Assembly: GCA_046756945.1 (NCBI GenBank)
Contig: JBHHXI010000002.1
Location: forward strand, 1 to 50,165
Length of the DNA stretch: 50,165 nucleotides
DNA from: Rhodospirillales bacterium
GTDB taxonomy: Bacteria > Pseudomonadota > Alphaproteobacteria > Rhodospirillales > 2-02-FULL-58-16
Direction of reading: 5' to 3'
Shown: one piece after another, positions 3,002 to 27,672 of the stretch
Layout of the letters: every line of letters starts with the position of its first letter
How positions within the stretch are numbered: position 1 is the first letter of the stretch
Notes under the pieces: model-generated
The model's database searches: none
What the model saw: only the letters and a program-made list of their open reading frames with translations
What the model was told of the DNA's origin: nothing
Made by a program: the position numbers and the translations under genes

Positions 3002-4422
3002 GCGCCGCCGCCCTGTTGATCGATCTCGGCAGCACCTATACCAAGGTGCGCGCCATCGATCTGGAAAAGGCGCGCATCCTCGGCGCCGGCCAGGGGCCGT
3101 CCACGGTGACCACCGACGTCACCGTCGGGCTGGCCAAGGCCCTCGCCGATCTCGAGCGCGGCATGGGCGGGCGGCGCGAATTCACCTACCGGCTGGCCTC
3201 GAGCAGCGCCGCCGGGGGCCTGCGCATGGTGACCGTGGGTCTGGTCCGCGAGCTCACCGCCGCCGCCGCCCGCCAGGCGGCCCTCGGCGCCGGGGCCAGG
3301 CTGGTGGGCACCTTCGCCTACAAGCTCACCGCCGCCGACGTGGCGCGGATCGCCGACCTGGCGCCCGACATCGTGCTGCTCGCCGGCGGCACCGACGGCG
3401 GCAACGAGGACGTGATCCTGCACAACGCCGCCGGCCTGGCCGCCTGCTCCATCACCTGCCCGGTGGTCGTCGCCGGCAACCGCCAGGCCGCCGACGAGGC
3501 CGCCGCCCGCCTCGACGCCGGCGGCAGTCCGGTCACGGTGACCGACAACGTCATGCCCGAGTTCGGGGTCCTCGACGTGGAGCCGACGCGCGCCGCCATC
3601 CGCCGGATCTTCATCGACCGCATCGTCCACGCCAAGGGCATCGACCGGGCGGCGGAGATGCTCGACCGGGTGCTGATGCCGACCCCGGCCGCCGTCCTCG
3701 ACGGCGCCCGGCTGCTCGCCGACGGATGCGGCGGCCGCCCCGGCCTGGGCTCCCTGCTGGTGGTCGATGTCGGCGGCGCCACCACGGACGTCCATTCCGT
3801 GGCGGACGGCGGGCCGGCCCGGGCCGAGGTGGTCTACCGGGGCCTGCCCGAGCCCTATCTCAAACGGACCGTGGAGGGCGATCTGGGCATGCGGCACAAC
3901 GCCCGGGCCATCGTCCAGGCGGCGGGGCGCGAGGCCCTGGCCGGCGACGCCGGGCTTGCCCCGGAGCGCATCGAGGCCCTGGCCCGGCGGGCGTCCGAGG
4001 ACACCGGCCGGCTGCCCCGATCGGCGGAGGACCGGGCCTTCGACAAGGCGCTGGCGCGGGCCGCCGTCGGGCTGGCGGTCAAGCGCCACGCGGGCACGCT
4101 GGACACCGTCCATACGGCGACCGGTCCGGTGACCGTCCAATTCGGCAAGGACCTGAGCACGGTGGAAACGATCGTCGGCACCGGCGGCGCCCTGGTCCAC
4201 GGGCCGCAACCGGCGGCCATCCTGGAGACCGCGCTGGCCGACGACGCGGACCCTTTCTCGCTCCGGCCGCGGACCCCGCGGATGGTGCTGGACAGGGATT
4301 ACATCCTGTTCGCCTGCGGCCTGCTCGGGGCGGTCGAGCCGGACGCCGCCTTGACCTTGGGCCTTGCCCACATGCATCCTCTAGGGGATGGACCGGAAAA
4401 TGGGTGCACTTCGACGGCCTGA
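2998..4422 (+). CDS. glmL: Glutamate mutase accessory/reactivase-like protein GlmL (MutL)
   Basis: N-terminus [17 protein letters not shown] and the [13 protein letters not shown] actin-like ATPase motifs. It sits between the S and E subunits as in known glutamate mutase operons. Confidence 0.8.
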
Positions 4423-5899
4423 CACCGGGGAGTCGCCGCTGTCGGCGGCGCAGATCCCCGCAGACGTGTTCGCGGCCATGCGGCGGGAAAACCTGGCCCG
4501 GTGGCCGACCGGCGCCGAGGTCGACCTGGACGCGGCGGTGGACTTCCACAAAAGCCTGCCCGAGCACAAGCGGCTGCCGTCGGTCATGCGCCGCGCCGTC
4601 GCCGAGGGCCGGTGCCTGACCCAGCCGCGGGGCGGGTTCGGCACCCTCGAGCTGCAGAGGGAGCTGATGCGGACCCTGGACACCGACGGGTTCGCCGACA
4701 TCGTTCCCACCACCACCGACAGCTACACCCGCAACGAACACTTTTCCAGGGCCGAAAAGGGCATCGAGGAATCGAAGCGCCTCGGCCGCTCCATGCTGAA
4801 CGGCTTTCCCATGGTCAACTACGGGGTCGCCGCGGCCCGCACGCTGACCGAGGCCATCGACAAGCCCGCCATCGTGCTGTCCGGCACCTCCTTGCCCAAG
4901 CTCACGTCCGAGATCGGTTTCGCGGCCGGGTATTCCGGGTACCTGGGATCGGGGATCGCCTATACGGTATCGTATACCAAGGACATCTCCGTCGAAGACG
5001 GCATCCGCAACTACCAGTACCTGGACCGGCTGGCGGCGCTGTACGGGGAGCGCGGCGTCGAGCTGCACCGCCGCCAGCCGGGCTTCCTGACCGGCACCAA
5101 CATCCCGCCGTCCATCGCCATCATCACCGGGGTGCTGGACGCGCTGCTCGCCGCCGGCCAGGGGGTGCGCGACTACGGCCTGGAACTGGGCCAGACCCTG
5201 CATCTGGTCCAGGACGCGGCGGCCATCCAGGTGTGCGGCGAGCTGTGCCAGGAATACCTGCGCCAACACGGTTTCGACGACGTGTTCACGCCGGTGACGT
5301 CCCTGCACTGGATGGGCGCCTGGCCCCAGGATGCGGCCCAGTCCGCCGCCCTCATCGTCTACGGCGGCACCCTGGCGGCGGTCGGCGGCGCCGTCAGCGT
5401 GACGACGAAGAGCACCCACGAGGCCTTCGGCATCCCGACGCCGCAAGCCAACGCCGAGGGCCTGCGCATGACCCGCATGGCGATCTACCTGGCGCGCAAC
5501 ATCCGCCTCGACGCCATGCCCGAGTTCCAGCGGGAAAAGGAGCTGATCCGCAAGGAGGTGCGGGCGGTCGTCGACAAGGTCCTCGACATGGGCGACGGCG
5601 ACGCCGCCGTCGGCACCGTCAGGGCCTGCGAGGCGGGCGTCCTGGACATCCCCTGGTCGCCGAACCGGTTCCTCAAGAGCCGGGTGCTGCCGGCCCGGGA
5701 CTCAGAAGGCTACCTGCGCATCCTGGACGCCGCCGACATGCCGTTTCCCGGCGACGTGCTCGACTTCCACGAGGACCGCCTGCGCGAGCGCGCCGGGCGC
5801 GAGGGCGTGCCCTACGACCATGACCTGGCGGTGACCAGCGTCTACGAGATCTCCGAATCCCTGGACAAGCTGCTTCCCGGCATGCCGGCAGCCGGGTGA
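4388..5899 (+). CDS. glmE: Methylaspartate (glutamate) mutase subunit E
   Basis: About 500 aa with WPTGAEV and TTDSYTRNEHFSRAEKGIEESK stretches typical of GlmE. The start is ambiguous (ATG 4388 or 4400) and overlaps the glmL end. Confidence 0.85.
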   Translation: MDRKMGALRRPDTGESPLSAAQIPADVFAAMRRENLARWPTGAEVDLDAAVDFHKSLPEHKRLPSVMRRAVAEGRCLTQPRGGFGTLELQRELMRTLDTDGFADIVPTTTDSYTRNEHFSRAEKGIEESKRLGRSMLNGFPMVNYGVAAARTLTEAIDKPAIVLSGTSLPKLTSEIGFAAGYSGYLGSGIAYTVSYTKDISVEDGIRNYQYLDRLAALYGERGVELHRRQPGFLTGTNIPPSIAIITGVLDALLAAGQGVRDYGLELGQTLHLVQDAAAIQVCGELCQEYLRQHGFDDVFTPVTSLHWMGAWPQDAAQSAALIVYGGTLAAVGGAVSVTTKSTHEAFGIPTPQANAEGLRMTRMAIYLARNIRLDAMPEFQREKELIRKEVRAVVDKVLDMGDGDAAVGTVRACEAGVLDIPWSPNRFLKSRVLPARDSEGYLRILDAADMPFPGDVLDFHEDRLRERAGREGVPYDHDLAVTSVYEISESLDKLLPGMPAAG

Positions 5900-6059
5900 G
5901 GCCCGCCAAGGCCGGCGGCGGCGTGCGGCGCCGGGGGCGAATCGTGCTTGATTCCCGGGAATTTTAGGTATCAAACGGTGATCAGGTGGTGGATATTAGA
6001 GAATACGCATATCCGTCGACGCCCCATCGGCGGGTATGCCCACGAAGGAGACACCGGCC

Positions 6060-7067
6060 ATGCCACCCAAAAGGGGCTTGTGCGTCCTTGGCCTGATCGT
6101 CGCGATCGGCTTCGCCGGCCCGGCTTCGGCGGGGAAACTGCCGGACGCGATGGAAAGGCCGGGCGGCTTTCCCGACCGGCCGCTCCGCCTGATCGTGCCC
6201 TATGGATCGGGCGGCGGCTCGGCCCAGGTTTCCCGGGCCATGGCGCAGGCGGTGACCGGGCACACCGGCGTCGCCATCGAGCCGCAATACATACCCGGCG
6301 GCAGCGGCATGGTCGGCCTGAAGGCCTACATGGAGACGCCCGCCGACGGCTACACGGTGCTTGAGCACATCGACGACGCGACCAGCGCCTTCGCCAGCGG
6401 CAAGAGCGAGGTCCATCCGGGCCGGGACCTGGTGCCGCTGGTGATCGCGCAGATCACCTTCAGCCAGATCTACATTCGCGGCAACGAGACGCGGTTCTCC
6501 GACTGGGCGTCGTTCGTCAAGTACGCCATGGCCAGGGGCGGCAGGGCGACCATGGCCAACGTCTCGCGCCAGGGTTCCATGGAACGCATCAACATGAACC
6601 GCATCGCCCGACACTTCGGGTTCAGGATCCAGCAGATCAGCTTCGACAAACCCGGGCCGCGCTACATGGCCCTCAAGAGCGCCCGGGTGGACGCCCTGTT
6701 CGAGCAGCCGGGCGACGTCAAGAAATTCCTCGACAGCGGCGACTTCAAGCCGATCCTCACCCTCCTGCCCGAGCGTCCACGGGCCTTCGCCGGCGTGCCG
6801 TCGATGAAGGACGTCGGCCTCACCTTCACGCCGTTGATGCGTTTCCGCGGGTTTTACGTGAAGAAGGGGGTTCCCGCGGATCGCCTGAAGTGGCTCCAAT
6901 GGGCCTTCCAGAAGGGCTTCGCCCAACCCGGCTTCCAGGCGTTCAACAAGAAGAAGTTCATGGACCTCATCCCCAGCTTCCGCGACACCGACGGGGCGAT
7001 CGCGCTGATCGAGGAGACCATGGCCGTCTACCGGAAGACCTATAAGGAAATGGGGCTGATCGAATAG
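6060..7067 (+). CDS. Tripartite tricarboxylate transporter substrate-binding protein (TctC/Bug family)
   Basis: LIVPYGSGGGSAQVSRAMAQ motif. Signal peptide from the internal ATG-6060, which is preceded by AAGGAG at 6045..6050. Confidence 0.8.
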   Translation: MPPKRGLCVLGLIVAIGFAGPASAGKLPDAMERPGGFPDRPLRLIVPYGSGGGSAQVSRAMAQAVTGHTGVAIEPQYIPGGSGMVGLKAYMETPADGYTVLEHIDDATSAFASGKSEVHPGRDLVPLVIAQITFSQIYIRGNETRFSDWASFVKYAMARGGRATMANVSRQGSMERINMNRIARHFGFRIQQISFDKPGPRYMALKSARVDALFEQPGDVKKFLDSGDFKPILTLLPERPRAFAGVPSMKDVGLTFTPLMRFRGFYVKKGVPADRLKWLQWAFQKGFAQPGFQAFNKKKFMDLIPSFRDTDGAIALIEETMAVYRKTYKEMGLIE

Positions 7068-7098: not shown

Positions 7099-8004
7099 TC
7101 AGCGCGAGCGCAGCCTCGGATCGAGGGCGTCGCGCATCGCGTCGCCGAACAGGTTGAACCCGAAAACGGCGATGCTGATGGCGATACCCGGCCACACCGC
7201 CATCCACGGCGCGCTCTCGGCATACTCCTCGGCGCCCCCCTGCAGCATCAGCCCCCAGGCCGGTGTCGGTTCCGTGACACCGAGGCCCAAATAACTCAAC
7301 GACGCCTCCAACAGGATGGCGTGGCCGACGAAGGTCGAGAACATGATCAGGAACGGCGCCATGACGTTCGGCGCCATGTGGCGGAGGATGATCCTGGCGT
7401 GGCCGAAGCCCAGCGCGCGCGCCGCATCCACATAAGGCAACTCGCGGATGGCCAGCGCGTTGGAACGCACCACCCGCGCGCACTGCGGGATGAAGGGAAT
7501 GGTGATGGCGATGATGACGTTTTCCAGCCCGGGCCCGAAAATGGAGACGATGGCCAGCGCCATGATGATCAGCGGGAAAGCCAGGAACACGTCCACGACG
7601 CGCTGGAACAACAGGTCGAAATAGCCGCCGAAGTAGGCGCTGGCGACGCCCAGGACCAGGCCGGCCACGGCGCCCATGGTCGCCGCCGCGAAACCGACCA
7701 GCAACGCCGTCCTGGCGCCATAGATGATCCGGGTCAGCACGTCGCGACCGAACTGGTCGGTGCCCATCCAATAGACGGAGTCGGGCGGCAGCAGCATATG
7801 CTCGAAATTGTTGAGAATTGGATCGTGGGGCGAAACCAGATCGGCCGAAGCGGCCATCAGGATCATCGCCAGGACGACACCGAGCCCGGCGGCGCCCAGG
7901 GGATACTTTTGCATCCAGGCGCGCGCGCGAACCGGCCACGGCTTGCGTGGAACGGCTGCGTCGATTTCAGCCTCGACGGGAGATTCCGATACGATGGCCA
8001 TCAT
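7099..8004 (-). CDS. ABC transporter permease, DppC/OppC type
   Basis: N-terminal OppC-like segment (WMGTDQFGRDVLTRIIYGAR) and an EAA-loop region (YVDAARALGFGHARIILRHMAPN). GAGGGAA Shine-Dalgarno before the start. Confidence 0.85.
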   Translation of the reverse strand: MMAIVSESPVEAEIDAAVPRKPWPVRARAWMQKYPLGAAGLGVVLAMILMAASADLVSPHDPILNNFEHMLLPPDSVYWMGTDQFGRDVLTRIIYGARTALLVGFAAATMGAVAGLVLGVASAYFGGYFDLLFQRVVDVFLAFPLIIMALAIVSIFGPGLENVIIAITIPFIPQCARVVRSNALAIRELPYVDAARALGFGHARIILRHMAPNVMAPFLIMFSTFVGHAILLEASLSYLGLGVTEPTPAWGLMLQGGAEEYAESAPWMAVWPGIAISIAVFGFNLFGDAMRDALDPRLRSR

Positions 8005-8120
8005 TAAATTCCCTCAACCCTGCCGATACGCGTCGCCATTCCCCTGAAAGCGGACATTTGGAAGGTGGTCGCCGCACATCTCCTTCCGACCGGGAGCGGG
8101 CTTCGCGTCCGGGGGGCGCA

Positions 8121-9263
8121 TTAGACCCCGAAGCCGTAAAGCCTGGCCGCATTGCCGCAGACGAGCTTGTGGCGTGTCGCCTCCGGCAGGTGGCCGAGTT
8201 CCTTTTGGATGAACGCCTGGGAATCCGGCCACACGCCGTCGGGATGGGGGAAATCCGACCCCCACATGACGTTGTCCTCGCCCAGGATGTCGAGGAGCCG
8301 GAGCCCGACCTCGTCGCTCTGATAGGTTGCCCGGCACTGGCGGTGCCAGTAATCGCTCGGCTTCATCCTCAGGGTCAGGTCTTTGTATTGTTCCTCCCAC
8401 TCCATGTCCATCCGGTCCAGGATATAGGGGATCCAGCCGATGCCGCTCTCGCCGATGACGACGCAGAGCGAGGGGTGGGTCTCGAGCACCCCGGAATAGA
8501 TGATCTCCATCAGGATGCGGGCCATGCCGAGCTGAAAGCCGGTGATGAAGACGGCGTGGGCCTGGCGCCCCTGCAATGGCGGCATGGACGCAAAATCCGG
8601 CCTCCTGGTGCCGACGGTATGGAAGTGCAGCGGCAGGCCGGACTCGCCGGCGGCCTTCCACAGCGGGTCCCAATCAGGATCGAACAGGGGCTTCATGTCC
8701 CAGCTGTTGGCGACCTCGAGGCCGCGAAGGGCGCCCCGCCTGACGACACGCTCGATCTCGGCGGTGGCGGCGGCGACGTCGTGGTTGGGGATCGACGCCA
8801 GGCCGGCGAAGCGCTCCGGGTGGGTGTCGCAGAAATCGGCCAGCCAGTCGTTGTAGATACGCATCATCTCGATCGCCGCCTCGTCGTCGTTCAGGCGCTG
8901 GCTGGCCCCGAGGATGCCGAACAGCACCTCCGCCTGGATGCCGTCCCGGTCCTGGTCCTTGATCCGCAGGTCCGGGTCGGTCAGGCGCCGGGTCCCGTTC
9001 CTGCCGTCCTCGTAAAGGCCCTCGTCGGCCATGCGGTCGGAGCGATGGATTTGGCCGGGGATGTATTCCCGCCCCGACGAGCCCATGCCGTTCTGGAGCC
9101 CGAAGCAGCCGCCGTTCCTGCTCACCCACACCGGGCCTTTCTCGCCGTCGGCGACATAGGGCATGCGGTCCTTCAACGCCTTGGACGCATTGGCGGTGAA
9201 CAAATCCGGCGGCAGCCACGGAAGGTCGATGTGGCAGTCGGCGGAAATCACGCGGTATTCCAT
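8121..9263 (-). CDS. Amidohydrolase family protein (amidohydrolase_2 / ACMSD-like metal-dependent hydrolase)
   Basis: N-terminal VISADCHIDLPW metal-binding motif and C-terminal GEDNVMWGSDFPHPDG motif. Confidence 0.75.
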   Translation of the reverse strand: MEYRVISADCHIDLPWLPPDLFTANASKALKDRMPYVADGEKGPVWVSRNGGCFGLQNGMGSSGREYIPGQIHRSDRMADEGLYEDGRNGTRRLTDPDLRIKDQDRDGIQAEVLFGILGASQRLNDDEAAIEMMRIYNDWLADFCDTHPERFAGLASIPNHDVAAATAEIERVVRRGALRGLEVANSWDMKPLFDPDWDPLWKAAGESGLPLHFHTVGTRRPDFASMPPLQGRQAHAVFITGFQLGMARILMEIIYSGVLETHPSLCVVIGESGIGWIPYILDRMDMEWEEQYKDLTLRMKPSDYWHRQCRATYQSDEVGLRLLDILGEDNVMWGSDFPHPDGVWPDSQAFIQKELGHLPEATRHKLVCGNAARLYGFGV

Positions 9264-9575
9264 ATCCCATCCCCGGTCCGGTCCCGGACTCGTGACCTGC
9301 TTCTACGAATGATACCACTTTTTAAGTCAGACCGGACACCAATGGAGGAAAGGGGCGATTCGGCCGTTGTCTCCCTGTAGCGGAAGCCGGATCGGAATGT
9401 CCGAAAAGCCGACAGTCGAGTCCGCTTCGCGCTTTCCGCCCATCGAATTTCACACCGAGACACCACCCCGCGTCGGCCTCGATTGTTGCGAAGGGGCCCA
9501 ATCGTCTATAATTTCCCGTCGGGCCGAGGGCCCCGGAGTTTTCCGCGGGCGGGCCAGGAAAACGGGAGGACGCCC

Positions 9576-11009
9576 ATGACGCAGCCGCTGAGCGCCGGCC
9601 GGCCGGCGCCGGGCGCGGACGACGCGCAAATCGTGGACGGCCTGGTCAAGAAGGCCAGGAGCGCCATGGCGGTCTTCGCCAACGCCGATCAGGCGCGGGT
9701 CGACGAGGCGGTGACGGCGCTGGCGTGGTCCATCTACCGGCCCGATCACGCCCGCGCCCTGGCCGAAGCGGCGGTCAGCGACACCGGGCTCGGCAACGTC
9801 GCCGACAAGACCGCCAAGAACCGGCGCAAGACCTTCGGCGCCCTGCGCGACCTGCTGCGCGTCAGGACCGTCGGCGTGATCGAAGAGGATGCGGCGCGGG
9901 GCATCGTCAAGTACGCCAAGCCGGTGGGCGTGGTCGGCGCCGTCGTCCCCTCGACCAATCCGGCGGCGACCCCGGTCAACAAGGCGATGATGGCGGTCAA
10001 GGGGCGCAACGCCATCATCCTGGCCCCGTCGCCGGCGGGGTCCAATACCACGGCGCTGACCGCCGGACACATGCGCGCCGAGCTGGAAAAGATCGGGCTG
10101 CCGGCGGACCTGGTGCAGGTGCTTCCGGCGCCGGTCACCAAGGCCCTCACCCAGGCCCTCATGGAGGCCTCGGACCTGGTCGTGGTGACGGGCTCGCAGA
10201 ACAACGTCCGCAACGCGTACCGGAGCGGCACGCCGGCCATCGGCGTCGGCGCCGGCAACGTGCCGGTGATCATCGATTCGAGCGCCGATCTGGCCGACGC
10301 CGCGGCGAAGATCCGCGACTCCAAGGTCTTCGACAACGCCACCTCGTGCTCGTCGGAGAACTCGGTGACCATCGTCGACGATGTGTACGACGCCGCCATG
10401 CGGGCGCTCGGGGACGCCGGCGGCTACCTGGCGACGGCCGAGGAAAAGCGCCTGATCGAGGACAAACTGTGGGTGGACGGCAGGCTCAACCGCACGCTCA
10501 TCGCCAAGGACGCGGACGTCTTCGCCCGCGACGTCGGCCTTTCCGAAGAGGCCGGGAAGGCCAGGTTCTTCATGGTCGCCGACGACGGCGCCGGCCCGGA
10601 CCACCCGTTCTCGGGCGAGAAGCTTTCCCTCGTCCTCACCGTCTACCGGGCCGCCGATTTCGACGCCGCGCTGAAGCGGGTGCGCGACGTCCTCCGCTAC
10701 CAGGGCATCGGCCATTCGGTGGGCCTGCACAGCGCCGACATGGACCACGCCCGCCGCCTCGCCGAGGAGCTCGACGTGGTCCGCGTGCTGGTCAACCAGG
10801 CCCATGCGTTCGGCAACGGGGGCAGCTTCGACAACGGGCTCGACTTCACCCTGAGCATGGGCTGCGGCACCTGGGCCGGCAACTCGATCAGCGAGAACCT
10901 GAACTACCGGCACTTCATCAACGTCACCCACCTGGTCACCGTGATCCCGGAGAACAAGCCCACCGAGGACGAGCTGTTCGGCGCCTACTGGGCGCGTTAC
11001 GGCAAGTGA
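9576..11009 (+). CDS. CoA-acylating aldehyde dehydrogenase (AdhE-N/EutE/SucD(Ck)/SauS-like)
   Basis: GVGAGNVPVIID...FDNATSCSSENS matches the acylating-ALDH catalytic Cys region (compare AdhE GVGAGNTPVVID...FDNGVICASEQS). GGGAGGA Shine-Dalgarno before ATG-9576. Confidence 0.8.
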   Translation: MTQPLSAGRPAPGADDAQIVDGLVKKARSAMAVFANADQARVDEAVTALAWSIYRPDHARALAEAAVSDTGLGNVADKTAKNRRKTFGALRDLLRVRTVGVIEEDAARGIVKYAKPVGVVGAVVPSTNPAATPVNKAMMAVKGRNAIILAPSPAGSNTTALTAGHMRAELEKIGLPADLVQVLPAPVTKALTQALMEASDLVVVTGSQNNVRNAYRSGTPAIGVGAGNVPVIIDSSADLADAAAKIRDSKVFDNATSCSSENSVTIVDDVYDAAMRALGDAGGYLATAEEKRLIEDKLWVDGRLNRTLIAKDADVFARDVGLSEEAGKARFFMVADDGAGPDHPFSGEKLSLVLTVYRAADFDAALKRVRDVLRYQGIGHSVGLHSADMDHARRLAEELDVVRVLVNQAHAFGNGGSFDNGLDFTLSMGCGTWAGNSISENLNYRHFINVTHLVTVIPENKPTEDELFGAYWARYGK

Positions 11010-11042
11010 CCCCAGTACTTCCTTGCATGTGAGAACTGACCG

Positions 11043-12167
11043 ATGAACTTCGAGGAACACGCGGCCAAGCCGCTGCTTGCCGCGGCCGGCATCGACGTGC
11101 CCCGGGGCCGCTGCGCCGCCACCGCGGACGAGGCCGCGGAGGCGGCCGGCGAACTGGGCCCGGTGGTCATCAAGGCCCAGGTGCCCGCCGGCAAGCGCGG
11201 CAAGGCCGGCGGCATCAGGCCCGCCGACGGCGCCGACGAAGCGCGGACCGCGGCGGCCGCCATCCTCGGCATGGACATCGGCGGCCACCGGGTCGAGCGC
11301 GTGCTGGTCGAGGAGCGCGCCCGGATCGCCGGCGAATACTACGCCGCCGTGCTCAACGACCCGCCGTCCAGGGGGCCGCTGGTGCTGTTCTCGACCCTCG
11401 GCGGCATGGACATCGAAGAGGCGGCCCGCACCGACCCCGCCCGCGTCCGCCGCGCCACCGTGGACATCCGCGCCGGGTTCGACCGGGCGGCGGCGCAACG
11501 CATGCTAAAGGGCCTCGACCTGGGCGACGAGGCGGCGGCCGTCGCCGATGTGCTGGTCCGGCTGTACGCGGCGTATCGCGGCAACGACGCCGAGCTGCTC
11601 GAGATCAACCCCCTCGCCGTCACCGAGGCGGGCCGCCTGGTGGCGCTCGACTGCAAGTTCACGCTCGACGATTCGGCGGTCAAGCGCCAGCCCGGCATCG
11701 CGCCCAGGGGCACGCCCGAGCGCCTCACCGGGCTGGAGGCCCGCGGCCAGGAGCTGGGGCTGCGCTACATCGAGCTCGACGGCAACGTCGGCGTGCTGGC
11801 CAACGGCGCCGGCCTCACCATGACCACCATGGACGTGGTCCGCCATCTGGGCGGCCGCCCGGCCAATTTCCTGGAGATCGGAGGCGAGGCCTATACCCAG
11901 GCCAGGCCGGCCCTGGAACTGGTGCTCTCCATTCCCGGGTTGAAAAGCATCGTCATCAACTTCTGCGGGGCGTTCGCCCGCACCGACGTCATGGTGGAAG
12001 GGGTCATCAACGCCGTGGAAGCGCTCAAGCCCACGGTCGCCATGTTCTTTTGCGTCCACGGCACCGGCGAGAAGGAAGCCGTCGCCATGCTTGAACGACG
12101 GCTCGGGGTCGAGCCCTTCGACACCATGGACGAGGCCATCGAAGCGGCGGTGGAGGCGGCCAGATGA
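11043..12167 (+). CDS. ADP-forming acid--CoA ligase, beta (ATP-grasp) subunit, SucC-like
   Basis: N-terminus MNFEEHAAKPLLAAAGIDVP...VIKAQVPAGKRGKAGGI parallels SucC. 33 nt after the ALDH gene. Confidence 0.8.
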   Translation: MNFEEHAAKPLLAAAGIDVPRGRCAATADEAAEAAGELGPVVIKAQVPAGKRGKAGGIRPADGADEARTAAAAILGMDIGGHRVERVLVEERARIAGEYYAAVLNDPPSRGPLVLFSTLGGMDIEEAARTDPARVRRATVDIRAGFDRAAAQRMLKGLDLGDEAAAVADVLVRLYAAYRGNDAELLEINPLAVTEAGRLVALDCKFTLDDSAVKRQPGIAPRGTPERLTGLEARGQELGLRYIELDGNVGVLANGAGLTMTTMDVVRHLGGRPANFLEIGGEAYTQARPALELVLSIPGLKSIVINFCGAFARTDVMVEGVINAVEALKPTVAMFFCVHGTGEKEAVAMLERRLGVEPFDTMDEAIEAAVEAAR

Positions 12168-13036
12168 TCGTGCGCGGCGACCAAAACGTCCTCGTCCAGG
12201 GCATCACCGGAAAGCAGGGCACCTTCTGGACCGAACGCATGCAGGAATACGGCACCCGCGTCGTCGGCGGGGTCAACCCGAAGAAGGCGGGCATCACCCA
12301 TTGCACGGTGCCGGTGTACGCCAGCGCCGGCGAGGCCATGGCCGACGGCGGCTTCGATGTCTCGGTGCTGTTCATCCCGCCGCTCGGCGTCCGCGAGGCG
12401 GCGCTGGACGCCATCGAGGCCGGGGCCAAGGGGCTGGTGATCCTCACCGAGCACATCCCGGTCCACGACGTGATGTACGTGCTCGCCGCGGCGCGCGAAA
12501 GCGGCACCCAGGTAGTCGGCCCCAACACGGCGGGGCTGGTGACGCCGGGCGAATGTTTCATCGGTTTCATGCCCGCCTTCACCAATTCCATCTTCCATGC
12601 GGGGCGCATCGGCGTGATTTCGCGCAGCGGCAGCCTGGGCACCCTGGTCTGCCTCAACCTGGTCCAGGCGGGCTTCGGCCAGTCCGCCTTCATCGGCATC
12701 GGCGGCGATCCCATCATCGGGACGACGACGCGCGACGCGCTGGAGACGCTGGACAGGGACCCGGGCACCGACGCCGTCGTCATCGTCGGCGAGATCGGCG
12801 GCTCCATGGAGGAAGACGCCGCGGCGTACGCCGCCACCATGACCAAGCCCGTCGCCGCCTTCATCGCCGGCGGCGCCTCGCCGGCGGGCCGGCGGATGGG
12901 CCATGCCGGGGCCATCGTCATGGGCGACAAGGGCAGCTACGCTTCGAAACACCGGGCGTTGAGCGAGGCCGGCGTCAGCGTGCTCGACACGCCGTCCGAC
13001 GTCGGAAAAGCCATGGCCCGGGCGTTGCGGCACTGA
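12164..13036 (+). CDS. ADP-forming acid--CoA ligase, alpha (CoA-binding) subunit, SucD-like
   Basis: VLVQGITGKQGTF, SRSGSLG and the phosphohistidine loop MGHAGAIV. ATGA overlap with the beta subunit gene. Confidence 0.85.
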   Translation: MIVRGDQNVLVQGITGKQGTFWTERMQEYGTRVVGGVNPKKAGITHCTVPVYASAGEAMADGGFDVSVLFIPPLGVREAALDAIEAGAKGLVILTEHIPVHDVMYVLAAARESGTQVVGPNTAGLVTPGECFIGFMPAFTNSIFHAGRIGVISRSGSLGTLVCLNLVQAGFGQSAFIGIGGDPIIGTTTRDALETLDRDPGTDAVVIVGEIGGSMEEDAAAYAATMTKPVAAFIAGGASPAGRRMGHAGAIVMGDKGSYASKHRALSEAGVSVLDTPSDVGKAMARALRH

Positions 13037-13058
13037 CAAAACCGGGAGGGGGGAAACC

Positions 13059-14057
13059 ATGCGGGCGATCCAGGTCACCGCGTACGGCGGATCGAAGGAA
13101 CTGACCCTCGCCCAGGTGCCGGTGCCCGATCCCGGCGACGGCGAGGTCCTGGTCAGGCTCGCCTACGCCGGGGTCAACTTCATCGACGTCTACATGCGCC
13201 AGGGCGTCTACAGGAATTTGCAGACCTACCGCAACACCCCGCCCTTTACCCTCGGCATGGAAGGGGCCGGCACGGTGGACGCCGTGGGCGCCGGCGTCGA
13301 CGGACTGGAGACCGGCGACCGGGTCGCCTATTGCCTGAGCCTGGGCAGTTACGCCGAATTCGCGGTGGTCCCCGCCTGGCGGCTGGTGCGCGTGCCCGAC
13401 GGCATCGATTTCCCCCTCGCCACCACCCTCATGCTGCAGGGGTGCACGGCCCATTACCTCACCCGGTCGCTGTTCCCGCTGGAGGCCGGACACACCTGCC
13501 TGGTGCACGCCGGCGCCGGCGGCGTCGGCCAGCTGGTGATCCAGCTCGCCCGCCACCGGGGCGCCCGGGTCCTGGCCACCGTGGGGACGGAGGAAAAGGC
13601 CGGGATCGCCCGCCGCCTCGGCGCCGACGCCGCCATCCTCTACACCCAGGTGGATTTCGCCGATGCCGTGTTGGAGGCGACCGGCGGCGAGGGCGTGGAC
13701 GTGGTCTATGATTCCGTCGGCCAGGCCACGTTCGCCGGCAGCCTGCGGTGTCTCCGGCGCCGGGGAACCTGCGCCCTGTTCGGCGGCAGCTCGGGGGCCG
13801 TGACCTCGGTCAACCCCCTGGATCTGGCCGAAGCCGGGTCGGTGTTCCTGACCCGGCCCCATCTCGCCGACTACACGGCGGACGCCGACGAGATCCGCCG
13901 CCGCGCCGCGGACCTCTTCGCCATGGTCGCCGACGGCCGTCTCAGGGTCGCCATCCACGGGGAACTTCCCCTCGCCGAGGCGGCCCGGGCCCATGAGGCC
14001 ATCGAGGGACGGCAGACCAAGGGCAAGCTTCTGCTGGTCGCCGGCGGACCCGGGTGA
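13059..14057 (+). CDS. NADPH:quinone oxidoreductase-like MDR (zeta-crystallin family)
   Basis: GVNFIDVYMRQGVY, PFTLGMEGAGTV and AGAGGVGQLVIQLA Rossmann motif. Confidence 0.8.
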   Translation: MRAIQVTAYGGSKELTLAQVPVPDPGDGEVLVRLAYAGVNFIDVYMRQGVYRNLQTYRNTPPFTLGMEGAGTVDAVGAGVDGLETGDRVAYCLSLGSYAEFAVVPAWRLVRVPDGIDFPLATTLMLQGCTAHYLTRSLFPLEAGHTCLVHAGAGGVGQLVIQLARHRGARVLATVGTEEKAGIARRLGADAAILYTQVDFADAVLEATGGEGVDVVYDSVGQATFAGSLRCLRRRGTCALFGGSSGAVTSVNPLDLAEAGSVFLTRPHLADYTADADEIRRRAADLFAMVADGRLRVAIHGELPLAEAARAHEAIEGRQTKGKLLLVAGGPG

Positions 14058-15283
14058 CGGCGCGGGCCACGGCCGTGGAGGCCGGCGCGCGCGACAGGGC
14101 GCGGGCGACGCTCGGCACCTGCGGCGCCGCCCACTTCCTCCACGACGGCTTTTCCGACGTCCTCTACGTCCTGCTTCCCCTGTGGGCCCAGGAGTTCGGC
14201 CTGTCGCTCACCCAGGTGGGACTGTTGAAGTCCCTGTACATGGGGGCGCTGTCGCTGTTCCAGCTACCGTCCGGGCTGCTCGCCGAACGGTGGGGCGAGC
14301 GGTTCCTGCTGGCGGCGGGCACGGCGGTGGCGGGCCTCGGGTTCGTCTTCCTCGGCCTGGCCGGCGGGTTCGCCGGCCTGATCGTGGTGCTGTTGTTCAT
14401 CGGGACGGCCTCGGCCACCCAGCATCCCCTGTCCTCGACCCTGGTCGCCCGGGCCTACGATACGGGCGGCCGGCGGGCGGCGCTCGGCATCTACAACTTC
14501 ACCGGCGACCTGGGCAAGGTGGCGATGCCGGCGCTCATCGCCTTGGGCGTCGCCGCCATCGGGTGGCGCGGCAGCGCCATGGCCTTCGGGGTTTTCGGGG
14601 CGCTGGGGGCGGCGGGGATTTTCCTCGCCCTGCGCACCCTCGGCGCCGGGGCGGCGCCCGCGGCGGCGCCCGAAAAAAGCCCCCGGCCGGCCGAAAACAA
14701 GGGTTGGGGGATTCACGACCGGCGGGGGTTCCAGGTGCTGTCCGCCATCACCGTCGTCGATTTTTCCACCCGCACCGCTTTCCTCACCCTGCTGCCGTTC
14801 CTTCTGATCGCCAAGGGGGCGGCGGTGGAGAACGTGGGTTTCGCCCTTGCCCTGGTGTTCGCCGGGGGCGCCGCGGGAAAGTTCCTGTGCGGCCTGCTGG
14901 CCGAGCGCTTCGGCATCATCCGCACCGTCGTGCTGACCGAGCTCGTCACCGGCGCCGGGGTCCTGGCGCTGCTGGCCCTGCCTCTCAACCCCGCCCTGGC
15001 CTTCCTGCCGGTGGTCGGGCTGGCGCTCAACGGCACGTCTTCGGTGCTCTACGGGACGGTCACGGAATTCGTCGTGCCGGAGCGCCAGCCCCGCGCCTTC
15101 GGGCTGTTCTACACCATCGGCACCGGCGCCGGCGCGGCCGGCCCGCTGGCGTACGGCCTGCTCAGCGATCTGACCAGCGTGCCGGTAGCCCTGGCGACCG
15201 TGGGATTGGTGGCGCTGACCACCATTCCGCTGAGCCGGTTGCTGGCGCCGTCCGTCAGGGAAGACGGTCGGGAACGGGCGTGA
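14054..15283 (+). CDS. MFS transporter
   Basis: About 12 predicted hydrophobic segments. GTGA overlap with the preceding gene. 409 aa. Confidence 0.7.
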   Translation: MTARATAVEAGARDRARATLGTCGAAHFLHDGFSDVLYVLLPLWAQEFGLSLTQVGLLKSLYMGALSLFQLPSGLLAERWGERFLLAAGTAVAGLGFVFLGLAGGFAGLIVVLLFIGTASATQHPLSSTLVARAYDTGGRRAALGIYNFTGDLGKVAMPALIALGVAAIGWRGSAMAFGVFGALGAAGIFLALRTLGAGAAPAAAPEKSPRPAENKGWGIHDRRGFQVLSAITVVDFSTRTAFLTLLPFLLIAKGAAVENVGFALALVFAGGAAGKFLCGLLAERFGIIRTVVLTELVTGAGVLALLALPLNPALAFLPVVGLALNGTSSVLYGTVTEFVVPERQPRAFGLFYTIGTGAGAAGPLAYGLLSDLTSVPVALATVGLVALTTIPLSRLLAPSVREDGRERA

Positions 15284-15383
15284 TCTGGAATCGTTTAAAC
15301 CGACGCGTGGCGCCGGGTCGGTGTTAGAATGGCCGGAAAGGGCTCAATATTTCTGCCCTGTGCGGCGACAACGGGAGGACCCC

Positions 15384-16643
15384 ATGGATACGAGCCAGAG
15401 GCCCGCCGTGGAAGTGAACGGCGTCACCTATCGCTGGCCGTCCCGGCCGGTGGTTGTGGTGTGCATCGACGGCGGCGATCCCCGGTATCTCGACCGGGGC
15501 CTGAAAGACGGCATCATCCCGAACGTCGGGCGATTCATGAAAGACGGCTTCAGCGCCATCGCCGACGGCGTCGTGCCCAGCTTCACCAATCCCAACAACA
15601 TCTCGATCATCACCGGGAGCCCGCCCGCGGTGCACGGTATCTCGGCCAATTTCTTCGTCGATCCCGAGACCGGCGCCGAGGTCATGATGAACGACCCCAA
15701 GTTCATATGGTCGGACACGGTCCTCGGCGAGTTCTCGAAGACGGGCAAGGTCGTCTCCATTACGGCGAAGGACAAGCTGCGCCGCGTGCTCGGCAAGGAC
15801 ATGGACTTTTCCCGCGGCAGCGTGAATTTCTCGTCGGAAAAGGCGGACGGCTGCACGGTGGCCGAAAACGGCATCGAAAACGTCCTCGACCTGGTCGGCC
15901 TGCCGCTGCCCGATGTGTATTCCGCCGACCTTTCGCTGTTCGCCATGGAGGCGGGGGTGAAACTGCTGGAGCGCGAGCGGCCGGACCTCATGTACCTGTC
16001 GCTCACCGACTACGTTCAGCACAAGTACGGGCCGGGCGAGCCGGTGTCCGACGGTTTCTACGCCGGGCTGGACGACGCCTTCGGGCGGCTCGAGGCGCTG
16101 GGCGCCGTCGTCGCGCTGATCGCCGACCACGGCATGAACGACAAGGCGAAGGCGGACGGATCGCCCAACGCCATTTTTCTCCAGGATATTCTCGACGCGG
16201 AATTCGGTCCGGGCACGACCAAGGTGCACCTGACAATCACCGATCCCTACGTGGTGCATCACGGCGCCCTGGGCGGCTTCGTCGGGGTCTATTGCAGCGG
16301 GGACGCGACCCCCGGCCAGGTGATGGATTTCGCCGGGGCGCTGCCCGGCGTCGAGGCGGTCTACGACAGGGACGCGGCCTGCGCCGCCTTCGCCCTGCCC
16401 GCCGAACGCCAGCCCGACGTCGCCGTGATCAGCGACGCGGCAACGGTCATCGGATCGTCGGCGGCCGCCCACGACCTCTCGGGCCTCGAGGGCCACCGCC
16501 TGCGCTCCCACGGCGGCATCGCCGAGCGCCGGGTGCCGTTCATCCTTTCGGCGCCGCTCAACGCCGACTACGCGGCACGCGCCGCGAAGGGCGGCCTCAA
16601 CAGCTACGAGATCTTCGACTACGCCGTCAACGGGACTGCGTAA
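15384..16643 (+). CDS. phnA: Phosphonoacetate hydrolase (alkaline-phosphatase superfamily)
   Basis: VVPSFTNPNNISIITGSPPAVHGISANFF, YSADLSLF, DLMYLSLTDYVQHK and ITDPYVVHHGALG closely track my recollection of the characterised PhnA. GGGAGGA Shine-Dalgarno before ATG-15384. Confidence 0.85.
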   Translation: MDTSQRPAVEVNGVTYRWPSRPVVVVCIDGGDPRYLDRGLKDGIIPNVGRFMKDGFSAIADGVVPSFTNPNNISIITGSPPAVHGISANFFVDPETGAEVMMNDPKFIWSDTVLGEFSKTGKVVSITAKDKLRRVLGKDMDFSRGSVNFSSEKADGCTVAENGIENVLDLVGLPLPDVYSADLSLFAMEAGVKLLERERPDLMYLSLTDYVQHKYGPGEPVSDGFYAGLDDAFGRLEALGAVVALIADHGMNDKAKADGSPNAIFLQDILDAEFGPGTTKVHLTITDPYVVHHGALGGFVGVYCSGDATPGQVMDFAGALPGVEAVYDRDAACAAFALPAERQPDVAVISDAATVIGSSAAAHDLSGLEGHRLRSHGGIAERRVPFILSAPLNADYAARAAKGGLNSYEIFDYAVNGTA

Positions 16644-16790
16644 CCCTCAGAACACGGCCCGGCGGATCAGGTTGAGCCCGATGACAAAGAGCGTGACCAG
16701 CAGGGCCTTGCGGAAGGTCTCCTGGTCGATCCGGCCGCGGATCTTCTGGCCCACCCACATGCCGGCAAGGCCGGGAACGCAGGCAAGCAG
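16644..16790. repeat. Direct repeat copy 1 (147 bp), homologous to the 3' end of the TauE/SafE gene
   Basis: Hand alignment with 17986..18132 shows 8 mismatches in 147 nt. Confidence 0.9.
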
Positions 16791-16844
16791 CCACACGGCT
16801 TCGCCCTCCATGTCACCGGCAGCAAGGCGCTCGTCGGCCCTCAT
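16647..16844 (-). pseudogene. Remnant 3' fragment of a TauE/SafE family gene
   Basis: The 65-aa ORF ends ...LACVPGLAGMWVGQKIRGRIDQETFRKALLVTLFVIGLNLIRRAVF, near-identical to the C-terminus of the intact 249-aa gene at 17989..18738. It has no matching N-terminal part. Confidence 0.8.
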
Positions 16845-16930
16845 GGCGGCGCAGGCGAGGGCGGACGGGAGGGGGCGGGCAATGGGGTGAACCGCGGGGT
16901 GAACCGCGGGCGTTTATTGGGCTGCGCCCG

Positions 16931-16954
16931 AAAAAAATCCGGCCGCGCGGCCGG
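16931..16954 (-). terminator. Intrinsic terminator downstream of the porin gene
   Basis: The minus strand reads CCGGCCGCGCGGCCGG (perfect 16-nt palindrome) followed by ATTTTTTT, 35 nt after the porin stop. Confidence 0.75.
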
Positions 16955-16988
16955 GGACATGTATTGCGGTGTTTTGTTTCCCCCGACC

Positions 16989-17909
16989 CTAGAACTTCAG
17001 GCGCACACCGAGCCCACCGAACGTACCCGTTGTACCCGTTGTCACGTCATCGTCCGCGGAGGTCGTGGAGTCGTCGAAGTCACCCAGGCTGAAGGCCACG
17101 AACAGTTCGGTGGTGTAGTCTTTGAATTTCTGTACCACGCTGAAACTCCAGGTCTTGGAAACGTCGTCGTTGGCGGCCAGGTCTTTCGTCCTCTGGTAAT
17201 CGACGAAAAAGTTGGTCGTTCCGGCATCGAAAATTTCCGCCTTGTAGCCCAGTTTGGCGTACCAAATCGCCGGATTGTTGCGGCCGATGTTCGATGTCCC
17301 CTTTAAATCCCGCGTACCCGCCGTAATCATCGCACTGAGGCCGCTGGGTTGAAGAATCGACGCCGAAACGTCGACCTCGGTGGCCGGCGACCCGCTTGGG
17401 GTGAAGCTGTTCAAATAGACGACGCGGGCTATCACCTTGGTTCCGGCAAGGCTGGCCGCATAGCGGGCCCCAAGGTCGAGGCCCTCGCCCTGGTTTTGGC
17501 CGGCCGAAAGCATGAGGCCGGGGAACGCGGGTGAATCGAACCACACCCGCTGCGTACGGTCGTCGAACCCGGTAAAGAGGACAGCCGGTCGAGGACCGGA
17601 GGGGGCGCCCGCTTGCGAATCTTGTGGCGATGTCCCGCCGAAACCGGCGCCCGCGGGACTCGAGGGATACGTGAGTATCGGCCCCGCGAGGTCGACCTCG
17701 ATGGGCCCGTTGCCCGTGTCTTCGCCTTTGCCCGCTGCGCCGTCGTCCAAGGAGCCGACCATTCGCCGGAGCTGGCCGGTAATGGCGATCCTCCCCCTGT
17801 CTTTGCTGGAGATGACGCTCTCGCCAGCCGAGGCGGGCGAAGCAAAAGGCGCGGTGAGGGCGAAAACCACACTCGCCGCAACGCATGTTCGCAGGGATTT
17901 TATGGACAC
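16989..17909 (-). CDS. Outer-membrane beta-barrel porin-like protein
   Basis: Signal peptide (V/M)SIKSLRTCVAASVVFALTAPFASPASA. Alternating beta-strand pattern. C-terminal ...GLGVRLKF with terminal Phe. The GTG-17909 start is preferred; the alternative ATG is at 17969. Confidence 0.65.
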   Translation of the reverse strand: MSIKSLRTCVAASVVFALTAPFASPASAGESVISSKDRGRIAITGQLRRMVGSLDDGAAGKGEDTGNGPIEVDLAGPILTYPSSPAGAGFGGTSPQDSQAGAPSGPRPAVLFTGFDDRTQRVWFDSPAFPGLMLSAGQNQGEGLDLGARYAASLAGTKVIARVVYLNSFTPSGSPATEVDVSASILQPSGLSAMITAGTRDLKGTSNIGRNNPAIWYAKLGYKAEIFDAGTTNFFVDYQRTKDLAANDDVSKTWSFSVVQKFKDYTTELFVAFSLGDFDDSTTSADDDVTTGTTGTFGGLGVRLKF

Positions 17910-17985
17910 TTCGTGTCTCAACTTTTCCCCGGACGTTGCAGGCCTCTCTTGTCCCAAAAAGGGCGCCACATTGCAACAATAAACG

Positions 17986-18132
17986 CCCTCAGAACACGGC
18001 GCGGCGGATCAGGTTGAGCCCGATGACAAACAGCGTGACCAGCAGCGCCTTGCGGAAGGTCTCCTGGTTGATACGGTCGCGGATCTTCTGGCCCACCCAC
18101 ATGCCGGCAACGCCGGGGACGCAGGCAAGCAG
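17986..18132. repeat. Direct repeat copy 2 (inside the intact TauE/SafE gene 3' end)
   Basis: See copy 1. Confidence 0.9.
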
Positions 18133-18738
18133 GGATAGGGGCGCGACCTCGGCCGTCAGGATGCCGTTGTCCACATAGGCGAGGACCAGCGGGATGGAAC
18201 CGGCGAACCAGACCAGCCCGATGGTGCGCACGAACATGTCCTTGGACAGGCGCAGCATGATGAAATACATCGTCATCGGCGGCCCCCATATGGTGGAGAC
18301 GCCGCCGAGCAGACCGCCCAGGGCGCCGGCCAGCGGTCCCGCCCATATTTCCGCCGGCGGCGGCACCCGCATCACGGGCCTGACGTAGTTGGTCGCCGTG
18401 AACAGCACCACGACGGCGCCGAGCAGGCCGAAGAGCGTGTCCGCGTCGAGGTTGACGACGATCCGCGCGCCGACCCAGATGAACCCCAGAAAACAGGCGA
18501 TCATCGGCCAGAAACGCCGCAACGGCGCCATCAGGTTGCCCGACTGCACCGCCAGCCACAGATTGGTCAGCACGATGGGCACCGTGACCAGCCCGAGCAC
18601 CAGCGGCGCCGGCAGGAAGCTGGACAGCACGGATATCGCGACGATGGGCAGGCCGATGCCCGTCACCCCCTTGACCACGCCGCCAAACGCGAAACCGACC
18701 AGGGCGACGGTCACGGTCATCGTGTCGAAAACGGGCAT
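17989..18738 (-). CDS. TauE/SafE (DUF81) family sulfite/sulfoacetate-type anion exporter
   Basis: 249 aa, about 7-8 hydrophobic segments, glycine-rich motifs GVVKGVTGIGLP and GALGGLLGG typical of DUF81. Confidence 0.75.
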   Translation of the reverse strand: MPVFDTMTVTVALVGFAFGGVVKGVTGIGLPIVAISVLSSFLPAPLVLGLVTVPIVLTNLWLAVQSGNLMAPLRRFWPMIACFLGFIWVGARIVVNLDADTLFGLLGAVVVLFTATNYVRPVMRVPPPAEIWAGPLAGALGGLLGGVSTIWGPPMTMYFIMLRLSKDMFVRTIGLVWFAGSIPLVLAYVDNGILTAEVAPLSLLACVPGVAGMWVGQKIRDRINQETFRKALLVTLFVIGLNLIRRAVF

Positions 18739-24054: not shown

Positions 24055-24060
24055 TTCCGT

Positions 24061-27622: not shown

Positions 27623-27672
27623 AATTACCGCTTTGCGGACAACCGCCTTGTCAAGCTGATACAGGCCACCAG

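Follow-up and report, generated by a model that had tools for sequence, protein, structure and literature searches.

A sauS-sauCD-type gene block followed by a phosphonoacetate hydrolase gene in a Rhodospirillales bacterium

Organization of the six-gene block

We describe here a block of six co-directional genes at positions 9576-16643 of a 50,165 nt stretch of DNA from a Rhodospirillales bacterium (GenBank assembly GCA_046756945.1, contig JBHHXI010000002.1, positions 1 to 50,165 of the forward strand), the whole of which is referred to as the window. The block begins with a coenzyme A (CoA)-dependent module, sauS, sauC and sauD, and ends with phnA. All six genes were confirmed by family scans and by gene calling on third-position G+C content (GC3), which is 0.87-0.93 across all six frames from sauS to phnA. 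The genes are as follows.

9576..11009, + strand: SauS, predicted CoA-acylating sulfoacetaldehyde dehydrogenase (NCBIfam NF047625 equivalog)
11043..12167, + strand: SauC, SucC-like beta subunit (Pfam ATP-grasp_2 and Ligase_CoA)
12164..13036, + strand: SauD, CoA-binding alpha subunit (Pfam CoA_binding and Ligase_CoA; phosphohistidine motif GHAGA)
13059..14057, + strand: zinc-free Qor-type medium-chain dehydrogenase/reductase (MDR), probable ene-reductase (structure matches and a missing zinc ligand)
14054..15283, + strand: major facilitator superfamily (MFS) transporter, candidate importer of sulfoacetate and/or phosphonoacetate (PF07690)
15384..16643, + strand: PhnA, predicted phosphonoacetate hydrolase (TIGR02335)

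An earlier note on this DNA, made from the sequence alone, had proposed that the first five genes are tightly coupled and, with phnA, might form an undescribed route in which phosphonoacetaldehyde or sulfoacetaldehyde is oxidized through a CoA thioester. Its gene set, gaps and overlaps for the five coupled genes and phnA match exactly what is found when the junctions are read directly: sauS and sauC are separated by 33 nt, sauC and sauD overlap by ATGA at 12164, 22 nt lie between sauD and qor, qor and the MFS gene overlap by GTGA at 14054 (an arrangement of translational coupling), and the ATG of phnA follows the MFS gene by 100 nt on the same strand. Ribosome-binding sites of the GGGAGG type stand ahead of sauS, qor and phnA, and the 100 nt spacer before phnA is as conserved as coding DNA in close relatives. 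A scan of 9200-19000 gave no promoter-like sites, and terminator-like sites at no more than the chance number.

The product of sauS scores 792.9 bits against the NF047625 equivalog model (cut-off 600), and the SauS-like dehydrogenase of the earlier note is thus upheld by a score far above the cut-off. The catalytic Cys258 of CoA-acylating aldehyde dehydrogenases is present in the context NATSCSSEN. The best solved structure is the acylating SucD of Clostridium kluyveri (8CEI, 284 bits), and NCBI models of non-acylating succinate-semialdehyde dehydrogenases (SSADH) give only 35-57 bits. The NF047625 model appears to represent SauS of the Cupriavidus necator type, and we assign to the window protein a putative activity on sulfoacetaldehyde and sulfoacetyl-CoA. 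SauC and SauD together have the make-up of a two-subunit ligase of the SauCD/SqwKL type: ATP-grasp in the beta subunit, and in the alpha subunit a CoA-binding domain and a phosphohistidine, whose motif GHAGA is at SauD residue 246. The nearest structure to SauC is the beta subunit of Thermus succinyl-CoA synthetase (268 bits), although SauC falls below the NCBIfam SucC equivalog cut-off (345.5 versus 370 bits) and SauD marginally below that of SucD (335.1 versus 336). As judged from sequence, the CoA module is a SauS with a SucCD-like ADP-forming ligase, a pair of an already described kind, and the assignment to sulfoacetate and sulfoacetaldehyde appears settled as far as sequence permits.

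The phnA product matches TIGR02335 with 560.3 bits (cut-off 407.55) and aligns along almost its whole length with Pseudomonas fluorescens PhnA (1EI6), scoring 413 bits. The motifs SFTNPNN, TAKDKLR, DYVQHK, ADHGMN and RSHGG are all found in the alignment to 1EI6; we take them to represent the threonine nucleophile, the zinc ligands and the carboxylate-binding lysines, and by these features the protein is predicted to be a genuine phosphonoacetate hydrolase. The structures closest to Qor are Mycobacterium tuberculosis Qor, the 2-haloacrylate reductase 1WLY and Escherichia coli Qor. The window protein lacks the zinc-ligand histidine, with GMEGAG at this place, and is probably an ene-reductase.

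Related loci and the neighbourhood of phnA

The SucC-like protein was scanned against one genome per species, yielding 80 ligase-anchored loci, all from metagenome-assembled Proteobacteria; with a few further loci the comparison set (numbered with the prefix L) comes to 83. The genes for SauS, SauC and SauD are adjacent in 73-77 of the 83, which bears out the earlier suggestion that the SucCD-like pair is the acid-CoA ligase partner of the dehydrogenase, and genes for Qor, TauE and MFS proteins recur in subsets. In L088 the gene order is xsc-pta-sauS-sauC-sauD; the xsc product scores 896 bits on TIGR03457 (cut-off 676), which confirms it as Xsc, and the SauS encoded inside this operon scores 791.6 bits on NF047625, equal to the window protein. 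Xsc is encoded within 10 kb in eight SauC-anchored loci, and linkage to Xsc/Pta is seen in L088, L043, L025, L056, Azospirillum and Indioceanicola. Azospirillum argentinense (L175, NZ_CP032324.1) and Indioceanicola profundi (L176, NZ_CP030128.1) share the order IclR-pta-tctCBA-sauS-sauCD-(Mo-enzyme, Soe-like)-xsc. The replicons are chromids in the cultured A. argentinense and A. brasilense and a plasmid in I. profundi; the aldehyde dehydrogenases are 67-70 % identical to window SauS, and the public records label the ligase genes 'sucC' and CoA-binding protein.

SauC proteins from xsc-pta operons are 66-72 % identical to window SauC, and in the SauC tree the window clade is sister to L088, with Xsc-linked loci and those linked to the Mut genes described below interspersed. 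The module is accompanied by importer genes, either for a tripartite tricarboxylate transporter (TTT) or an MFS protein, and by Xsc/Pta, but not by taurine- or isethionate-oxidizing genes. An operon that joins it to xsc and pta makes sense only if sulfoacetate is the substrate, and with relatives in xsc-pta-sauS-sauCD operons the placing of the cluster in C2-sulfonate metabolism by the earlier note is well founded.

Among the 80 ligase-anchored loci, phnA is found only in L004 and L005, which are 93 % relatives from the window lineage, and in L051, so that over 95 % of the related loci lack it. The earlier note had held that its proposal would suffer if the block were without phnA or DUF81 (TauE/SafE) genes in most genomes; this is largely the case for phnA, and 11 of the 36 fully flanked loci have a TauE gene. 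L051 belongs to a distant gammaproteobacterium (JAKUQS010000025.1, 106-16865, from a metagenome-assembled genome, MAG); its PhnA scores 539 bits and is encoded about 4.5 kb upstream of sauS. This locus also holds genes for a PhyH-type dioxygenase, a trimethylamine-dehydrogenase-like flavoprotein, a PIG3-type MDR and a DUF1989 protein, with a gene of the phosphoenolpyruvate mutase/isocitrate lyase family near phnA, and may be a mixed phosphonate/sulfonate island.

PhnA relatives at 68-69 % identity are found in units that encode PhnA, a zinc alcohol dehydrogenase and an aldehyde dehydrogenase, with transposases on the flanks. In L169 the order is Qor (80 % identical to that of the window)-LysR-MFS (69 %)-PhnA (73 %)-ArsR, and in L174 a TctA gene (68 % to the TctA of a Sau cluster) is followed by phnA (74 %). 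Thus phnA adjoins the module in just two or three lineages, and then behind a gene for a sulfoacetate-type transporter (MFS or TctA). This tie to the transporter makes a shared route of entry for two isosteres, sulfoacetate and phosphonoacetate, the likeliest link between phnA and the module. The SauS, SauC and SauD proteins of the phnA-bearing clade are unchanged at every position with 90 % or higher conservation among the other family members, and hence give no sign of re-specialization towards phosphonates. With no such substitutions, and with the nearest outgroup in an xsc-pta-sauS-sauCD operon, the phosphonate-thioester route of the earlier note gains no specific support.

Phosphonoacetate utilization units include that of P. 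fluorescens 23F, in which phnA is accompanied by a LysR regulator and a transporter, and phnWAY of Sinorhizobium meliloti; we take the structures 1EI6 (the 23F PhnA) and 3SZY to belong to such units. Window PhnA shares its active-site motifs with the 23F unit, and L169 has the same LysR-MFS-PhnA layout, whereas the window differs from the phnWAY units in the absence of phnW and phnY and in having its transporter gene GTGA-coupled to a sulfonate operon. No aminotransferase and no non-acylating aldehyde dehydrogenase, the kinds of enzyme to which PhnW and PhnY belong, is encoded in the 50 kb window, and xsc, pta, phnW and phnX are all absent from it. We found no relevant literature on phosphonoacetate hydrolase together with sulfoacetate.

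The DNA immediately 3' of phnA contains the following features.

16647..16808, - strand: 3' fragment of a TauE gene, about 50 codons, a repeat arm (profile positions 186-237)
16809..17985, no strand: 1.18 kb insert between the repeats with no recognizable gene and lower GC3
17989..18738, - strand: complete TauE/SafE-family anion exporter, for sulfite or a sulfonate (PF01925, full-length)

The stop codons of phnA and of the TauE fragment are 3 nt apart. The convergent DUF81 exporter that the earlier note had placed next to phnA does exist as an intact gene, but about 1.35 kb further on, whereas the piece that abuts phnA is only the fragment (32.0 bits on PF01925, below the 32.6 cut-off; the intact protein scores 96.6 against the same gathering score). 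A 165 nt direct repeat derived from the TauE 3' end is present at 16644-16808 and 17986-18150 (90 % identical), and imperfect inverted repeats of 28 nt lie near the ends of the insert (16892-16919 and 17977-18004). The insert has no Pfam match even at E = 1 and could be a mobile element, either decayed or of an unknown kind. The region also varies among the 93 % relatives: phnA is followed by a DEAD-box helicase gene in L005, and in L004 the 3' end of phnA is duplicated, TauE is truncated and a different insert, again without a Pfam match even at E = 1, occupies the same junction. This variability indicates that the phnA-TauE junction is recent and unstable. TauE orthologues are found at the same position in 22 related loci, and SafE, an exporter of sulfoacetate, is one of the DUF81 proteins. 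Beside TauE (18881-20571) are genes for the aconitase-X large subunit and swivel domain, and L010 has a 72 % orthologue (4515-6268) not far from its Sau cluster.

Orthologues of the MFS transporter (54-68 % identical) come after sauD or qor, without phnA, in L010, L022, L029 and L080, and a 69 % orthologue precedes phnA in L169. The L029 gene is accompanied by a LysR regulator 56 % identical to the LysR of L169. We considered whether the MFS gene and phnA were imported as a single two-gene cassette, but this was not adopted: the MFS tree joins the window protein to the phnA-less, Sau-linked L010 and L022, with the phnA-linked L169 as the next branch out. In a plasmid database the only matches to the MFS protein were Burkholderia genes at 45 % identity, whose surroundings are unrelated.

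The upstream B12-type enzyme and the wider island

Upstream of sauS are five further genes or gene pairs that bear on the setting of the module.

2528..3001, + strand: MutS-like B12-binding subunit (DxHxxG motif as SDTHIVG; 78 % to the PF02310 gene of L083 by tblastn)
2998..4422, + strand: MutL/GlmL-like accessory (reactivase) protein (PF13941, 543 bits; NCBIfam GlmL, 578 bits, cut-off 475)
4388..5899, + strand: MutE-like putative catalytic subunit of a B12-dependent radical enzyme (alignment to GlmE)
6036..7067, + strand: TctC-type periplasmic binding protein, SauZ-like, an orphan here (PF03401)
7099..9263, - strand: lone OppC-like ABC permease gene and Amidohydro_2 gene (Pfam), at the tctBA position

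TctC, TctB and TctA are encoded immediately upstream of sauS in the relatives L083 and L084, the second of which (89 % identical) retains tctCBA where the window has the permease and amidohydrolase genes; an ancestral TctCBA system is broken in the window genome, leaving the orphan TctC.

The mutS-like gene overlaps the mutL-like gene by ATGA, and the MutE-like protein aligns with GlmE (PDB 1CB7/1CCW) over residues 27-489 with 392 bits and scores 452.7 bits on TIGR01503 (cut-off 390.1). Public records name it 'methylaspartate mutase subunit E', and the products of canonical glmE genes are 36-42 % identical to it (tblastn). In glutamate mutase the glycyl moiety of the substrate is held by R66, R149 and E171 and the acrylate moiety by R100 and Y177 (PMC10947579). 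All 12 MutE-like orthologues encoded next to Sau genes retain R66, R100, Y177, Y181, K326 and E330, and all 12 carry R149L, H150S/T (H150S in the window), E171L, G173S and F297W. Four canonical GlmE proteins (Clostridium, E. coli, Ensifer and Gemmobacter), all encoded beside methylaspartate ammonia-lyase, keep the canonical residues; no methylaspartase gene was recognized beside the MutE-like gene in annotated loci. The resemblance to GlmS/GlmL/GlmE thus extends to the three-gene set, the B12-binding motif, the adenosyl-ribose contacts K326 and E330 and the acrylate-site residues R100 and Y177. It ends at positions 149 and 171, both leucine here, and at the gene neighbours, which are SauSCD, Qor, MR/MLE, Xsc, TauE and TauD instead of an adjacent methylaspartase. 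Judged by its active site the enzyme does not appear to be a glutamate mutase; loss of the glycyl site with retention of the acrylate site indicates that its substrate probably keeps a -CH2-CH2-COO- half, has no amino group and carries some other second anionic group, and the neighbours would make it a sulfo-carboxylate. The MutS/L/E-like set is thus probably a radical enzyme, not described before, that acts in the metabolism of organosulfonates.

When clustered at 50 % identity the MutE variant forms one tight family, the next relatives being at most 44 % identical. The canonical signature is found in only 32 of about 120 full-length superfamily representatives at that level, a count in which low-identity alignments may err, whereas almost all of them have R100, K326 and E330; this suggests that many uncharacterized B12 enzymes stand under the 'methylaspartate mutase' name. 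Close homologues of MutE number more than 1,800 in public data, and the 120 best listed include no isolates, all being from metagenomes or MAGs. Literature on B12 enzymes or mutases with sulfonates, or on glutamate-mutase homologues of other function, was sought and nothing relevant was found.

The recurrent island contains genes for AzlCD; MutS-MutL-MutE; TctCBA; SauS-SauC-SauD-Qor; SNF, TauE and MR/MLE enolase-superfamily proteins; and sdhBCD-tauE-fumAB-sdhA. A reciprocal metagenome scan with MutE, in which neighbours were counted on 80 mostly short contigs, gave these counts.

MR/MLE: 27 of 80
SauS: 22 of 80
Qor: 20 of 80
Sdh: 11 of 80
TauE: 11 of 80
Xsc: 7 of 80

L125 has sauS on the minus strand, then MR_MLE-Qor-TctC-MutS-MutL-MutE-TctB-TctA, TauE and Xsc on the minus strand, and IclR, and L114 has MutSLE-IclR-TauD-sauS-sauC-sauD. 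In the 36 fully flanked loci the odds ratios for co-occurrence with Qor are 10 for MutE and 20 for TauE, rough values as the loci are not phylogenetically independent. Qor would belong functionally with the upstream MutS/L/E-like enzyme in a further sulfonate-linked step. We considered whether MutSLE and Qor might stand in for Xsc by forming a B12-dependent isethionate sulfite-lyase that acts after a sulfoacetaldehyde reductase; such simple replacement is unlikely, since MutE-anchored metagenome loci such as L125, L167, L148 and L165 carry MutE and Xsc in adjacent operons. In the ligase-anchored set MutE and Xsc co-occur in none of eight loci, which is not significant.

An operon sdhB-sdhC-sdhD-tauE-fumA(N)-fumA(C)-sdhA adjoins the island in L083/L006 (16375-21143) and also in L046, L053, L137 and L141. 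In this unusual arrangement the TauE exporter gene is set among complex-II and class-I-fumarase genes, and the products may act on a sulfonated succinate analogue. Elsewhere in the window, 20528-38562 and 47207-50138 take in a large glycosyltransferase/polysaccharide cluster with genes for an FkbM methyltransferase, an asparagine synthase, a flippase-like protein and a heparinase II/III-like protein, together with a phage-type integrase gene that lies near the window end beside a 617-codon ORF without a Pfam match.

Interpretation and significance

We consider that the block is a sulfoacetate-handling operon within a larger organosulfonate island, serving catabolism of imported sulfoacetate, with phnA appended, and put the probability of this reading at roughly 0.6. 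The scheme, in which substrates, direction of flux, sharing of the transporter and every enzymatic activity are read from family membership, catalytic motifs, conserved gene order and co-localization, would run as follows. Sulfoacetate would enter through the MFS transporter; SauCD would convert it with ATP to sulfoacetyl-CoA, releasing ADP and Pi; and SauS would reduce this with NAD(P)H to sulfoacetaldehyde, which would be desulfonated elsewhere, relatives using Xsc with Pta for which neither gene is in the window. TauE would export sulfite. PhnA would hydrolyse phosphonoacetate, itself imported by transporters of this MFS family, to acetate and Pi, with no need of the thioester enzymes. The comparative evidence favours this catabolic direction of import, activation, reduction and Xsc.

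The closest described system is the sauS-sauCD-sauXYZ sulfoacetate cluster of Bilophila wadsworthia, of which SauS and SauCD were characterized in 2023 (Liu et al., 2023; PMC10413351). Both clusters have an acylating dehydrogenase beside a two-subunit ADP-forming SucCD-like ligase and a TctC-family protein or TTT transporter, and both would have sulfoacetyl-CoA and sulfoacetaldehyde as intermediates; however, the later steps in Bilophila are those of TauF and the glycyl-radical enzyme IseG, whereas the window has the Qor-type MDR, the MFS transporter, PhnA, TauE and the upstream B12 MutSLE-like enzyme. The window SauS matches the NCBIfam SauS model (793 bits), while Bilophila SauS is only 37 % identical to that of C. 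necator. C. necator H16 has sauRSTU with xsc and pta (Weinitschke et al., 2010). The window resembles this system in its SauS orthologue, in a candidate MFS importer within the operon, analogous to SauU, and, through its relatives, in the use of Xsc and Pta, but ADP-forming SauCD takes the place of the AMP-forming SauT. The same enzyme pair and thioester chemistry are known from SqwD/SqwKL of a sulfo-transketolase variant, which runs oxidatively and yields ATP, and from HpfX/HpfYZ, the C3 version for 3-sulfopropionate (PMC12890257), which show that such a pair can work oxidatively with gain of ATP and can take a C3 sulfonate; those hosts are anaerobic Firmicutes, Spirochaetes and Tenericutes in which the enzymes serve sulfoquinovose or 2,3-dihydroxypropane-1-sulfonate (DHPS) pathways, and the window has no genes of either pathway. 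Clusters of sauSCD with TTT genes have also been described in proteobacterial sponge symbionts (PMC12625764). The core chemistry is therefore not the undescribed route that the earlier note had supposed, the pair being known from Bilophila and its energy-conserving use from SqwD/SqwKL.

Several points weigh against this interpretation. The ligase and dehydrogenase reactions are reversible, so that the direction is a matter of probability; the 50 kb window has no xsc, pta or soe genes to account for the fate of sulfoacetaldehyde; Qor has no place in a simple sulfoacetate pathway; the specificity of the MFS transporter is conjectural; and the likeness to Bilophila SauCD (E5Y8P8, E5Y8P7) is one of domain make-up and gene order. 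In addition, the occurrence of phnA near sauSCD in a second lineage (L051) hints at a link tighter than a common transporter.

The reversibility bears most directly on an oxidative scheme like that of SqwD/SqwKL, in which sulfoacetaldehyde from taurine, isethionate or sulfoquinovose becomes sulfoacetyl-CoA, SauCD recovers ATP and sulfoacetate leaves through the TauE/SafE protein. Homologous enzymes are documented to run this way (PMC12890257). The absence of Xsc from the window, the enrichment of TauE beside the module (11 of 36 loci, and its odds ratio with Qor) and the membership of SafE in the exporter family would all fit. We regard it as rather unlikely nevertheless, because uptake systems flank the module (MFS, or TctCBA, a family homologue of the sulfoacetate-binding SauXYZ), xsc and pta belong to the same operon as the module in cultured relatives and L088, and inspection of neighbourhoods revealed no dehydrogenase or aminotransferase for taurine or isethionate. 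Still less do we favour a phosphonate route, in which SauS- and SauCD-like enzymes would take phosphonoacetaldehyde through phosphonoacetyl-CoA to phosphonoacetate and ATP and PhnA would cleave the product. The start of phnA 100 nt after the operon, in the same orientation, and the lack of a PhnY-type dehydrogenase in the window agree with it. So does the fact that phnA and sauSCD have come to lie together independently at least twice (in the window clade with L169, and in L051), which for an otherwise rare gene looks, as a rough judgement, beyond chance; and the PhnA-alcohol dehydrogenase-aldehyde dehydrogenase units imply that PhnA normally has an aldehyde-oxidizing partner. Yet the same enzymes, with an equal SauS score and SauC at 66-72 % identity, occur in xsc-pta operons, the phnA-bearing clade has no substitutions at conserved family positions, more than 95 % of related loci do without phnA, and in L169 and L174 it is tied to the transporter gene and not to the ligase. 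No phnW, phnX or other source of phosphonoacetaldehyde is present in the window or L051.

The plainer alternative that the earlier note had entertained, succinate or 4-hydroxybutyrate metabolism by a succinyl-CoA synthetase, a succinate-semialdehyde dehydrogenase and a reductase, is the weaker reading and is rejected as very improbable. The closest structures (C. kluyveri SucD and the Thermus beta subunit) and the public annotation as sucC and CoA-binding protein do point that way, but the 793 bits on the SauS model stand against 284 for the best structure and 35-57 for the non-acylating models, SauC and SauD fall below the curated SucC and SucD cut-offs, Qor lacks the alcohol dehydrogenase zinc site, and the neighbours are Xsc, Pta, TauE, TauD and TTT genes with no tricarboxylic acid cycle or 4-hydroxybutyrate genes among them.

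A broader suggestion, which we offer only tentatively, takes in the whole island: an undescribed, oxygen-tolerant B12-radical step on an organosulfonate, working together with Qor and SauCD-SauS(-Xsc), on an uptake chassis that PhnA extends to phosphonate. The B12 enzyme would isomerize or cleave a non-amino sulfo-carboxylate. In one version it could convert 3-sulfopropanoate to the alpha-sulfo acid 2-sulfopropanoate, which SauCD, SauS and Xsc could process like sulfoacetate; Qor, with its relation to 2-haloacrylate reductase, would reduce 2-sulfoacrylate, and the MR/MLE protein would be a C2 racemase.

The core pathway being already known, the most interesting content of the locus is Qor, the upstream B12 enzyme and the repeated coupling of phnA to transporter genes. 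The SauS/SauCD pair is widespread in uncultured alpha-, beta- and gammaproteobacteria of marine, groundwater and soil origin, and also in cultured Azospirillum, but is labelled in public records only as 'aldehyde dehydrogenase' and 'sucC'; correction of these labels alters estimates of sulfoacetate consumers. The recurrence of phnA behind sulfoacetate-type transporter genes suggests that these C2 isosteres share uptake, coupling the scavenging of sulfur and phosphorus. Finally, the more than 1,800 public 'methylaspartate mutase' proteins lack the glycyl-binding residues and travel with Xsc, SauSCD, TauE and TauD; if these MutE-like enzymes act on a sulfonate, they would be the first B12-dependent enzymes of organosulfonate metabolism and an aerobic counterpart of the glycyl-radical sulfonate lyases.

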